DNA of 64,000 nt from Candidatus Caldarchaeum sp. (lineage in GTDB: Archaea > Thermoproteota > Nitrososphaeria_A > Caldarchaeales > Caldarchaeaceae). Of the stretch, positions 3 through 1,977 are shown in pieces; position 1 is the first letter of the stretch, and each line of letters opens with the position of its first letter. A program made the translations under genes and the position numbers. The notes below the pieces were generated by a model, which searched no databases, had not been told where the DNA came from, and worked only from the letters and a program-made list of their open reading frames with translations. Where the stretch lies: NCBI GenBank assembly GCA_038885755.1, contig JAVZZH010000002.1, positions 32,001 through 96,000 on the forward strand, given 5' to 3'.

Positions 3-95
3 TCGGGCGGCATGGTTGCGGGCTACGCTTGCTGGAAGGCTGTCGATCACGGGTCGGGTAAGGAGTTTGTCGAGGAGAGGGTGTCGGTTGAATGA
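3..95 (+). CDS. 3' end of a gene entering from outside the window; probable M67/JAMM (MPN+, Mec-like) metalloprotease C-terminus
   Basis: Frame 3 reads SGGMVAGYACWKAVDHGSGKEFVEERVSVE* (TGA 93-95), resembling the ..SV.xG....W.....F.EE.i.v tail of M67 proteases. It directly precedes a MoaD/CysO-like gene. Only 30 aa are visible. Confidence 0.4.
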   Translation, partial: SGGMVAGYACWKAVDHGSGKEFVEERVSVE

Positions 96-102
96 CTTCG
101 AA

Positions 103-110
103 TTTATATA
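103..110 (+). promoter_or_regulatory. Archaeal TATA box for the ubiquitin-like fusion gene
   Basis: TTTATATA ending about 28 nt before ATG 138. Confidence 0.55.
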
Positions 111-137
111 CAGCTTTCAAACTATGGTAAAAGGCAC

Positions 138-680
138 ATGCCTGTAAAGGTTTATCTCCCAACCCCCCTCCGGCAGTACGCCGACGGCAAGGACGTGGTT
201 GAGGTTGACGGAGCGACGGTTGGAGAGGTTTTGAAGAGCCTAACTAACCGGTTCTCAGCCCTTCAGAAGCATCTTTTCACGGAGACAGGCTCCGTGAGAA
301 GCTTTGTCAACGTCTTCCTCAACGACGAGGACATCCGGTATCTTGAAGGCCTTCAGACCAAGATCAAGGACGGCGACACGATCTACATCATTCCATCCAT
401 CGCAGGCGGGTTGAGCGTTGCTCAGACCGTCTCGATAAGCAGGAAGCTCGGCCGGACAGTCAGGGAGCACGGCCGCATAACTGTACCGATGAAGCTTCTG
501 AAAAAGGCTAGGAAGCGAGAGGTCTCGCTGGTGCTTGAAGACGTCAAGTATGTCTTCGAGGCCGACAAATACGGCAGGATCTATCTTCCCCCAGTTCTAA
601 GGGAAAGGCTCGCCAACATGGCCGCCTTCGAGATCACTCTAGTCAACGGCGAGCTTTTCCTGAAGTTCAGAAGGTTCTAG
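138..680 (+). CDS. MoaD/CysO/SAMP ubiquitin-like protein with internal di-Gly, fused to a tandem AbrB/MraZ-like domain
   Basis: aa 1-91 are a beta-grasp MoaD (VYLPTPLRQY...VNVFLNDEDIRYL...IIPSIAGG). The C-terminal 89 aa carry two AbrB-type motifs, VREHGRITVP and ADKYGRIYLP. Confidence 0.8.
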   Translation: MPVKVYLPTPLRQYADGKDVVEVDGATVGEVLKSLTNRFSALQKHLFTETGSVRSFVNVFLNDEDIRYLEGLQTKIKDGDTIYIIPSIAGGLSVAQTVSISRKLGRTVREHGRITVPMKLLKKARKREVSLVLEDVKYVFEADKYGRIYLPPVLRERLANMAAFEITLVNGELFLKFRRF

Positions 681-695
681 GCCCTGGGTGCTCGC

Positions 696-1097
696 ATGCC
701 GAAGTATGTGATAACGCTGGAGTCGGACGACGTCGAGGTTTCCTGCGAAGCTGCTTCTAAGGAGGAGGCGATGAGCCATGTCGACGACCTGATAGAGGTC
801 TACAGAGCTGTGCTGGAGAGGTTGAGGGAGAAGCCGAAGACGACGGTCTCCAAGCGGAGGGGTAGGTCGGAGGCCGTGGAAGTGCTCAGGATACTCGAGG
901 AGCAGCTCATACCGTCTTCTTTCTTCAGCCAACCTCGCTCGACGGCAGAGGTCAGGGAGAGGGTCTCCGAGCTCGTCAACGTTAGGTTCCAGAGCAGAAA
1001 GGTAAGCCAAGCTCTCGGCATACTCCACAAGAAGGGCGTCCTCTCAAGAGTGGGGTTGAGAGGGGACTACAAATACTATCTCAAAACAAGTAGGTAG
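696..1097 (+). CDS. Putative winged-helix DNA-binding protein
   Basis: C-terminal FFSQPRSTAEVRERV...VSQALGILHKKGVLSRVG..GDYKYY wHTH pattern; operonic spacing with neighbours. Confidence 0.65.
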   Translation: MPKYVITLESDDVEVSCEAASKEEAMSHVDDLIEVYRAVLERLREKPKTTVSKRRGRSEAVEVLRILEEQLIPSSFFSQPRSTAEVRERVSELVNVRFQSRKVSQALGILHKKGVLSRVGLRGDYKYYLKTSR

Positions 1098-1101
1098 GAA
1101 G

Positions 1102-1977
1102 ATGTCTCAGGTTCTTGAAACCGTCAAGGTTTACTTCCTGCTGACCAAGCCCAACGTCTGGTGGCTTCTCGCTTTCACAGGCGTGGCGGGGATGGTTGCG
1201 GGCTCGGGCGGGCTGCCCAACCCCTCGCTCTTCGCCGCTGCTTTTGCCGGGATAACGCTAGGCGTCGCCGGGACGGAGGCCGTCTCCAACTACATCGAGA
1301 GAAACCTCGACGCAAGCATGAAGAGAACCTCGCGCAGAGTTCTTCCCCGTGGACTGATATCGCCGGAGTGGAAGGCCCTAGCCTTTGGGCTGGGCTTGAT
1401 GGCTGTTTCGCTCGTGATTAGTTTCTCGATAAACCCTGTGGTTTTCTTCTTCATGTCCAGCGGGATGTTCAACTACTTGGTGATGTACGTGTTGTGGTCT
1501 AAAAGACGCACCCCTCTAAACATCATCATCGGCAGCTATTCGGGAGGTGCTCCGTTGATGGCCGGCTACACAGCAGCCAGCCTCTGGCCTACTCTAGAGG
1601 CCTGGATTCTAGCCGCCTTGATAGTGCTGTGGATCCCGCCGCACATCTGGAGCCTAGCCCTGATATACAGGGAGGACTACAGGAACGCCCACGTCCCCAT
1701 GCTGCCTGTCGTGGCTTCGGAGGCCACGGCCATACGCTGCATATCTTCAACAACCATAATCTCAGTCATCTTCACTTTCCTGCTATACGTTCTGTACCCC
1801 GAGAAGTATGGCTTGGTCTACTTGACGGCTGCCTTCCTCAGCGGAGCGGTTATAGCTGTGCCGTCCCTCGCCCTCATCGTCAAGCCGTCCAAAAGGTCGG
1901 CGTACACGTTGTTCAAGCTCACAAGCCCGCAGCTATTCATAATAATGATGGCCGTGATTGTTGACAACCTAGTCTGA
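1102..1977 (+). CDS. ctaB: Protoheme IX farnesyltransferase (heme O synthase)
   Basis: LTKP, NYIERNLDASMKRTSRRVLPRG, KRRTPLNIIIG, WIPPHIWSLA, EDYRNAHVPMLPVV (UbiA/CyoE motifs). Confidence 0.95.
   Translation: MSQVLETVKVYFLLTKPNVWWLLAFTGVAGMVAGSGGLPNPSLFAAAFAGITLGVAGTEAVSNYIERNLDASMKRTSRRVLPRGLISPEWKALAFGLGLMAVSLVISFSINPVVFFFMSSGMFNYLVMYVLWSKRRTPLNIIIGSYSGGAPLMAGYTAASLWPTLEAWILAALIVLWIPPHIWSLALIYREDYRNAHVPMLPVVASEATAIRCISSTTIISVIFTFLLYVLYPEKYGLVYLTAAFLSGAVIAVPSLALIVKPSKRSAYTLFKLTSPQLFIIMMAVIVDNLV

Follow-up and report, generated by a model that had tools for sequence, protein, structure and literature searches.

A 64-kb stretch of DNA from the hot-spring archaeon Candidatus Caldarchaeum sp., referred to at its full length as the window, encodes a ubiquitin-like (Ubl) carrier joined in frame to an 89-residue extension. 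The fusion is real and under selection in the genus, and is modelled as two domains joined by a flexible linker. We put at roughly 0.7 the probability that the following explanation holds as a whole: the fusion is a precursor, derived from two overlapping genes, which the JAMM metalloprotease encoded upstream cuts after Gly91, thereby allowing the carrier to be activated and releasing an AbrB-like protein. Both a precursor of this kind and its cutting by a JAMM protease have been described in print from the genus's type species, and the window holds one more orthologue; that the extension is AbrB-like, and where it came from, are unpublished in the literature that we searched.

Architecture of the fusion gene

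The fusion open reading frame (ORF) runs from 138 to 680 on the forward strand, as do all features given below in window coordinates. It encodes 180 residues, with its stop codon at 678–680, and it reads in every detail as the original prediction described it: a β-grasp domain ending in PSIAGG, followed in frame by 89 residues that contain two motifs. Residues 1–91 (138..410) form a CysO/MoaD/SAMP-type β-grasp domain, the Ubl sulfur-carrier fold, as assigned from profile and fold matches. The predicted CysO/MoaD-type nature of this half is borne out by Pfam ThiS (51.6 bits against a cut-off of 22.5, E 1.4e-13, residues 5–91; Urm1 is also matched) and by the NCBIfam models SAMP1 (64.4 bits, cut-off 60) and moaD_arch (51.8 bits, cut-off 49.5). 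Its best solved relatives are CysO proteins, 4n6e_B (2e-18) and Mycobacterium tuberculosis CysO 3dwg_C (1e-16), at 40–42% identity, both ending at the Gly-Gly. The β-grasp fold is modelled with a predicted local distance difference test score (pLDDT) of 86–95 across residues 1–80, and Foldseek matches the carrier half to the same two structures (4n6e_B, E 4.4e-9, TM(target) 0.90, r.m.s.d. 1.8; 3dwg_C, TM(target) 0.86).

Gly90 and Gly91 are encoded by GGC GGG at 405–410 (…IIPSIAGG), and the same frame runs on as LSVAQT…, with the two motifs of the extension, GRITVP and GRIYLP, at residues 112–117 and 146–151. The junction (405..416) reads GGC GGG TTG AGC, for Gly90 Gly91/Leu92 Ser93, with the JAMM cut expected after Gly91 and a TGA in the +1 frame at 412–414. 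The carrier's Gly-Gly is therefore internal, with 89 residues beyond it, and the uncut protein lacks the free C-terminal Gly-Gly by which the sulfur-carrier family is defined; this end would be free only after cleavage. In the model of the whole fusion (pLDDT 85.2, predicted template modelling score (pTM) 0.48), residues 88–97 fall below a pLDDT of 50, and the protein is predicted to be two domains joined by a flexible linker.

A TATA-like box (TTTATATA, 103..110) lies about 30 nt 5′ of the ATG at 138. An A/T-rich box of this kind stands at the same distance from the cysO ATG in all 16 of the orthologous loci compared, including those that have no JAMM gene upstream, and it is probably an archaeal promoter belonging to the fusion gene itself, whose leader would then be very short or missing. 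With a box of its own, the fusion gene could be transcribed apart from cysM and the JAMM gene. When the 110 nt upstream of cysO in the 16 loci were compared by eye, without a statistical motif search, no shared operator was seen, the TATA-like box being the only common element.

Published work on the type-species orthologue

The fused protein of one genus genome (G009, locus L012) is letter for letter BAJ50561.1, a ThiS family protein of Ca. Caldarchaeum subterraneum. CSUB_C0702 of that organism resembles the window's fusion in its length of 180 residues, its 91+89 layout, its PSIAGG/LS junction and its adjacent JAMM gene, with 69% identity between the two proteins and 54% between CsJAMM (Csub_C0703) and the window's JAMM; it belongs to a different species of the genus from the window's organism. 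Nunoura 2011 (PMC3082918) describes "89 additional residues" after the Gly-Gly of CSUB_C0702, so that the statement in the original prediction that no such system was known in archaea had been overtaken in print since 2011. Fuchs 2018 (PMC6043591) expressed Csub_C0702, Csub_C1603 and Csub_C0703 (CsJAMM). The adjacent CsJAMM cuts the Csub_C0702 precursor in vitro (Supplementary Fig. 8a), SAMP precursors were not processed by CsRpn11 (Fig. 4e), and Csub_C0702 served as the CsJAMM substrate in inhibitor assays (PMC6043591). The predicted pro-protein matches this in vitro cleavage of its 69%-identical orthologue.

The accessible parts of Nunoura 2011 and Fuchs 2018 mention neither the nature of the 89 residues, nor the CysM-like neighbour, nor the split state in sister genera. 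The term AbrB is absent from the available text of PMC6043591, Iyer 2006 (PMC1779556) and Makarova & Koonin 2010, and a literature search on AbrB with MoaD/JAMM and on Caldiarchaeum SAMP/CsJAMM did not return the extension's identity among the best 15 matches of 88 and of 104. In the literature searched, two papers only name CSUB_C0702. Added here are three points: the extension appears to be a complete gene that once stood alone, its AbrB/MraZ-like product being of very narrow distribution; sister genera keep the unfused, overlapping state; and the carrier's tightest genomic partner is a small basic protein, not the enzymes.

A probable AbrB/MraZ-like pseudobarrel in the extension

The extension (411..680) consists of a short linker, residues 92–98, and a tandem AbrB/MraZ-like pseudobarrel at about residues 99–180, as assigned from profiles and a structural model. 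Its pI is 10.56 compared with 5.23 for the carrier half, with 19 Lys and Arg against 9 Asp and Glu; it has no Cys and one His only. Pfam MraZ matches the whole protein at 27.9 bits and the extension alone at 23.8 bits (cut-off 23), the match lying on the second motif, GRIYLP. An alignment of the extension was built from 20 members, comprising the fused forms, the split forms and four free-standing paralogues of 86–91 residues. Searched member by member against Pfam at E up to 1, all 20 match MraZ (best E 2.2e-7) and 10 of the 20 match MazE_antitoxin of the SpoVT-AbrB kind (best E 2.2e-4); the profile evidence as a whole is marginal.

The extension alone is modelled with a pLDDT of 87.7 and a pTM of 0.73, and the model repeats its strand/helix pattern. 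In Foldseek, LlaJI.R1-N shares the best rows with plant B3 domains, MraZ and the AbrB-like PHS018 of Pyrococcus, with E between 4e-3 and 0.2. A full-library VIA alignment gives B3 domains at Z 5.2–5.9, MraZ 1n0e at Z 4.8, BfiI-C/EcoRII-N at Z 4.2–4.7 and PHS018 (2glw) at Z 3.6, and its fold ranks 1–14 are all DNA-binding pseudobarrels or AbrB/MraZ-type barrels. The profile matches, the confident model and the fold matches together support the predicted AbrB/MraZ-like nature of this half, probably as a basic tandem pseudobarrel of the swapped-hairpin/DNA-binding barrel kind.

The family to which the extension belongs appears to be very narrowly distributed. When its profile was run against 1.84 billion representatives, three relatives only came up, namely the fused form, the split form and one 85-residue paralogue. 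A word-index homologue search with the extension alone gave no candidate, a result that shows the limits of the index and not absence, and a search of its profile against PDB sequences gave chance-level rows only (E at least 0.11). The free-standing AbrB-like paralogues of 86–91 residues (L023:983-1255, L024:1019-1288, L025:992-1249 and, on the reverse strand, L026:953-1210) come from other genera and families of the order and share the tandem layout G/W-R/K-h-x-h-P … D-K/R-Y/H-G-R-h-x-h-P. Their contexts are unrelated: they lie beside a molybdenum hydroxylase-like gene and a Met-tRNA synthetase gene, or beside an EamA-type transporter gene. An antitoxin role for the AbrB-like part was considered and set aside, as in the loci inspected its neighbours include neither PIN nor MazF nor any other toxin-like gene; neither PADLOC nor a toxin-profile search was run.

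Conservation of the fusion

The 180-residue protein was used as query against 41 related genomes, 39 of which gave a match. In 10 other genomes of the genus the fusion is full length and without a stop, at 98, 98, 89, 82, 79, 79, 73, 69, 69 and 69% identity. A further genome (G010) carries it truncated by a contig end with the junction still fused, so that the fusion is kept in 11 of the 12 other genus genomes; the search did not find it in G001, which is 76% complete. Twelve fused loci could be compared (the window, L004–L013 and L015). PSIAGG is invariant in all of them and neighbouring synonymous sites vary; the Gly-Gly codons themselves differ among GGC GGG, GGC GGC, GGC GGT, GGA GGA and GGT GGA, so there is no shared homopolymer on which to slip. 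Across the genus, identity to the window's own protein is 75–98% for the carrier half and 62–99% for the C-terminal half. Ubl-type matches number three or four in the genus genomes and four in sister genera, with the split pair counted as two; by these counts the fused gene is the only CysO orthologue found in the genus genomes.

In the protein database, 12 clusters of 179–180 residues span the whole query, and all the named ones are from Ca. Caldarchaeum; the other 108 rows listed cover at most 73% of it. The full-span clusters are called 'MoaD family' or 'ubiquitin-like small modifier protein 1', and databases label the whole fusion 'MoaD family' or 'SAMP1', a naming that hides the second protein.

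Positions 405–413 are crossed without an indel by contigs of four studies, three of DNA runs and one of a metatranscriptome library; this evidence consists of contigs, which are uninformative on rare variants, transcript ends and expression. The sole indel listed is in a contig of run X5, which lacks one base at 684, four bases past the fusion stop; it is intergenic and leaves both ORFs unaffected. One RNA-library contig spans 53–1100, which is no proof of transcription.

Origin from two overlapping genes

In sister genera (four genomes of three genera) the two halves are adjacent, separate and mostly overlapping genes. The cysO gene ends in GG-SYD-stop in G014, where the second gene has its ATG within this tail but in a different frame; in GG-VGA-stop in G013 and G016, with an ATGA overlap; and in GG-EGHA-stop in G015, again with an overlapping second gene. 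In G017 it ends in GG-TAG, and the ATG of the second gene follows four bases on in the same frame. The N-terminal residues of the separate AbrB-like proteins align with residues 92–103 of the fusion, in its linker region.

These comparisons lead us to infer that the fusion arose in the genus ancestor from two translationally coupled, overlapping genes through a one-base frame change. The ancestral pair would have consisted of a cysO gene ending in GG plus 0–4 residues and an AbrB-like gene whose NTG start codon fell within this end. For the Gly-Gly to be exposed, three of the four tails in the sister genera must be trimmed, so JAMM processing is probably older than the fusion; with the carrier's tail already being trimmed by JAMM, the fusion would have been harmless and hence tolerated.

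The junction appears to preserve a trace of this history. In 11 of the 12 fused loci the two codons after the Gly-Gly read [T/C/A]T[G/A] AGC, so that a shift to +1 meets TGA or TAA. In one of these (L006) TTG AGC has changed to TTA AGC and the +1 stop is now TAA, and in L010 the pattern is lost (GCG GCG). We read the +1-frame stop as a relic of an ancestral NTGA stop/start overlap. Selection on this stop was considered and rejected, as its retention is unremarkable given the codon usage of the window. The original prediction had allowed that the fusion might be a single-base slip. As an artefact this fails, with 11 of the 12 other genus genomes fused and contigs of four runs crossing the G-run without an indel; as evolutionary history it holds, given the split overlapping genes of the sister genera.

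The upstream protease and the CysM-like enzyme

With 8 kb of upstream sequence added to the window, the gene order is a 72-residue ORF, a 307-residue PALP enzyme, a 136-residue Prok-JAB protein, the fusion, a 133-residue ORF and heme O synthase. The JAMM/MPN+ metalloprotease gene starts 316 nt before the window (L002:7685-8095), and its 3′ end, the last 30 codons and the stop, occupies 3..95. The identification of this gene as a JAMM protease, first made from the visible tail, holds for the full gene, which matches Pfam Prok-JAB at 72.5 bits (cut-off 25) and has the complete motif E…HxHx7Sx2D (E22, H78-S-H80-x7-S88-x2-D91). It scores 67.3 bits against NCBIfam desampylase, under the equivalog cut-off of 130; among solved structures, 2kcq and the SAMP protease PfJAMM1 (5lda) are its best relatives. 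One JAMM orthologue per genome was found in 40 of the 41 genomes searched.

The PALP enzyme matches Pfam PALP at 232.5 bits, and its best solved relatives are CysM/OASS-B (2e-61). Its score against cysKM, 304.8 bits, is under the cut-off of 344.15, and by sequence we would call it CysM-like only. The genome also holds two ThiF/E1-family genes above cut-off. In the near-complete genome G008 (L013) the fusion has neither the CysM-like nor the JAMM gene upstream of it, the latter lying about 28 kb off on the same contig.

Proposed mechanism and alternatives

In the mechanism that we propose, the Gly-Gly end of the carrier is blocked by the 89 residues until the upstream JAMM cuts after Gly91; for the window's pair this cut is deduced, and for the orthologous pair cleavage has been observed in vitro. 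The cut would free the glycine carboxylate, whereupon, going by what is known of these families, one of the two E1-like enzymes would adenylate and thiocarboxylate the carrier. The CysM-like pyridoxal phosphate (PLP) enzyme could then use it, as in the CysO/CysM/Mec+ cysteine route of M. tuberculosis. The same cut would release the AbrB/MraZ-like protein one for one. The released protein would most likely bind DNA and regulate transcription, the DNA binding being predicted because of fold and charge only, and perhaps it regulates the fusion gene itself, which has its own TATA box.

Several points weigh against this explanation. The text accessible in Fuchs 2018 (PMC6043591) does not state the cleavage site for Csub_C0702. 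The Pfam MraZ match in the extension spans 19 residues only and is barely above the cut-off (23.8 against 23 bits), and the fold matches of the extension are moderate (VIA Z 5.9–3.6, Foldseek E 4e-3 or weaker), below the tool's distinctive level. The PALP enzyme scores 306.6 bits against cysM (TIGR01138), under the equivalog cut-off of 394.2, and the JAMM and cysM genes are not beside cysO in G008, G013, G015 and G016. Finally, in all the Ubl-GG-X sulfur-carrier fusions known to us X is the carrier's working partner, which argues for a protein-partner role over DNA binding. The released protein might thus be a protein partner in the carrier's pathway, such as an adaptor, a chaperone or a CysO acceptor, with the JAMM cut still taking place. 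In four genera cysO and the AbrB-like gene remain an overlapping pair, also where cysM and the JAMM gene are elsewhere, so the tight link is that of cysO with the AbrB-like gene and not with the enzymes. MoaD–MoaE and ThiS–ThiG fusions, in which the fused part is the carrier's physical partner, offer a parallel, and Iyer 2006 (PMC1779556) lists ThiG, MoaE, sulfite reductase and AOR, each a working partner, as proteins fused to ThiS/MoaD. However, the C-terminal domain, without Cys and with one His, offers no persulfide or metal site; it is strongly basic, and its better fold matches all bind DNA. The whole-fusion model moreover has two confident domains and a disordered linker at a pTM of 0.48, so that no docked arrangement is predicted. 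A prediction of a complex between the AbrB-like domain and the 133-residue neighbour scored 0.00 and, having no controls, speaks neither for nor against binding. We consider a partner role unlikely, though well worth bearing in mind. We are more doubtful still that the JAMM cut is itself a regulatory step, in which the joined AbrB-like protein would be kept from its DNA or protein target and its release, in a one-to-one ratio to activated carrier, gated by the metal- and redox-sensitive JAMM, in this genus only. If true, the supply of sulfur carrier would be reported by a circuit under proteolytic control, with feedback on the cysO promoter and on other sulfur or cysteine genes. As the two proteins are made separately in sister genera, the AbrB-like protein can fulfil its role without the fusion, and a regulatory switch such as the original prediction suggested is possible but not indicated.

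Readings without cleavage fit the data less well. The fusion might stay uncut in vivo as one two-domain regulator whose β-grasp serves as a sensor or interaction module and is no longer a sulfur carrier, much as the β-grasp domains of other proteins bind ligands or mediate interactions (PMC1779556). This is very improbable: the invariance of PSIAGG in all 12 fused loci, a carrier half better conserved than the C-terminal half, the failure to find a second CysO orthologue in these genomes and the in vitro cutting of the orthologous precursor by its JAMM (PMC6043591) all speak for a working carrier that is processed. Two products might also be made without a protease, if the ribosome or the polymerase slipped by +1 at GGC GGG T/TGA, if translation started internally at codon 92, or both. 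The +1-frame stop lies directly after the Gly-Gly in 11 of the 12 loci, including the TTG-to-TTA locus that keeps a TAA, and 10 of the 12 have at codon 92 a triplet that could serve as a start (TTG, ATG or CTG). However, an inherited NTGA stop/start overlap would leave the same pattern, and with Leu/Met-Ser conserved, 57% of the window's Leu codons and 92% of its AGY Ser codons keep the stop, which over about five independent lineages is not significant. L010 has no +1 stop, the TTA codon of L006 is not a start, the full-length orthologue was made as a precursor in Escherichia coli (PMC6043591), and no contig has a junction indel, though contigs cannot reveal rare RNA variants. We give this reading hardly any weight. 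Removal of one G from GGCGGG would turn the junction into GG-TGA with an overlapping TTG start, so that the fusion could in principle be a sequencing or assembly error in the G-run of a genome that truly has two genes. The open frame in 11 other genus genomes with varied junction codons, the bridging contigs of four other runs and the 12 protein clusters rule this out for practical purposes. Cleavage after Gly91 with release of an AbrB-like, probably DNA-binding protein remains the explanation that we favour.

Relation to known systems

JAMM-processed carrier fusions are known for MoaD and MoaE: Deinococcus DR0402, a JAMM protease, cuts the MoaD–MoaE fusion DR2607, and M. tuberculosis MoaX is cited likewise (PMC8832034). 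As in the Caldarchaeum fusion, a Ubl is joined through Gly-Gly to a second protein and a JAMM cut makes the C-terminal Gly; the fused part there is the enzyme partner MoaE, whereas here it is AbrB/MraZ-like, probably DNA-binding and without catalytic residues. Iyer 2006 (PMC1779556) predicted that JAB frees the C terminus wherever ThiS/MoaD is fused, and lists an operon type that combines ThiS/MoaD with JAB and with cysteine synthase (rows 4c and 4d). The trio at the window locus, in which a PLP enzyme resembling cysteine synthase is joined by a JAMM and a carrier of the CysO type, is that of the M. tuberculosis CysO/CysM/Mec+ route. M. tuberculosis CysO ends at the Gly-Gly, and the JAMM there removes a cysteine adduct. 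In contrast to that route, the Caldarchaeum PLP enzyme misses the cysM equivalog cut-off, and its pathway here is a predicted one.

The extension resembles MraZ in having two G-R-h-x-h-P repeats in one chain, but has only 82–89 residues compared with about 140–150 for MraZ. The layout Ubl-GG-X recurs in the MoaD-related Thermus thermophilus protein 1v8c (168 residues), whose MoaD-like domain ends in …PPVAGG at 87 and is followed by about 80 residues. This structure is the rank 2 fold match for the whole-fusion model; it is not among the matches listed for the 89-residue domain alone, so a likeness between the second domains is unsupported. In the literature searched the entry is mentioned by two papers only, and no data on its processing were found. 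A metagenome protein of 188 residues (P0013) is a tandem di-Ubl, with CysO-like domains joined as …PAIAGG-TVAVGK… and the second ending in …VQGG-SGK; from its sequence it would be a poly-Ubl-style sulfur-carrier precursor needing two JAMM cuts.

In eukaryotic ubiquitin–ribosomal protein fusions the Ubl is likewise N-terminal in a precursor from which a protease releases both parts equally, and the Caldarchaeum fusion is in this sense a prokaryotic parallel to ubiquitin-fusion precursors. The CsUb precursor also has an N-terminal Ubl and is cut by CsRpn11 (PMC6043591). The fusion differs from both in its Ubl family, that of the sulfur carriers, in the clade of its protease and in its C-terminal part, which is not ribosomal. 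Together with the sister genera, it provides a natural comparison of fused and split states for the role of the small protein in the archaeal sulfur-carrier/SAMP pathway.

Neighbouring genes

The gene directly downstream (696..1097, 15 nt past the fusion stop) encodes a conserved basic protein of 133 residues, in which the C-terminal block FQSRKVSQALGIL…R.G..G.Y is invariant. It had been labelled a winged helix-turn-helix (wHTH) protein, a label that finds no support in Pfam, NCBIfam or PDB profiles: neither Pfam nor NCBIfam assigns it a family, and a profile of nine orthologues finds no wHTH in the PDB. Searched singly against Pfam, one of the nine members matches MCM4_WHD (E 0.072) and one matches HTH_33 (E 0.09). 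A language-model atlas gives a lead only, Penicillinase_R on 10% of one distant cluster.

Heme O synthase (CtaB/CyoE) follows at 1102..1977, 4 nt past the stop of the 133-residue gene (UbiA 7.7e-47; TIGR01473 cyoE_ctaB 241.3 bits, cut-off 210.3). Among other genus loci with at least 400 nt beyond the fusion, which leaves out L004 and L009 as ending too early, it has the same position in eight of nine (L005–L008, L010, L011, L013 and L015). The ninth, L012 of the near-complete genome G009, has neither this gene nor the 133-residue gene downstream of the fusion. From this arrangement heme O synthase is probably a co-transcribed neighbour, and the fusion, the 133-residue gene and heme O synthase may form one transcript.

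Directly before the CysM-like gene lies the 72-residue ORF (L002:6531-6749; G000:C2:30531-30749). Its C-terminal half is 85–100% identical across the genus and 60–67% in a sister genus. It has no Pfam match even at E 10, and the atlas gives a lead at rank 25 to CopG/ParG ribbon-helix-helix regulators; the operon may be regulated by this protein. Farther upstream, about 0.7 kb from the cluster, L002:4408-5850 encodes a 480-residue N6 DNA methylase/Eco57I-like protein (Pfam N6_Mtase, 7.4e-13).

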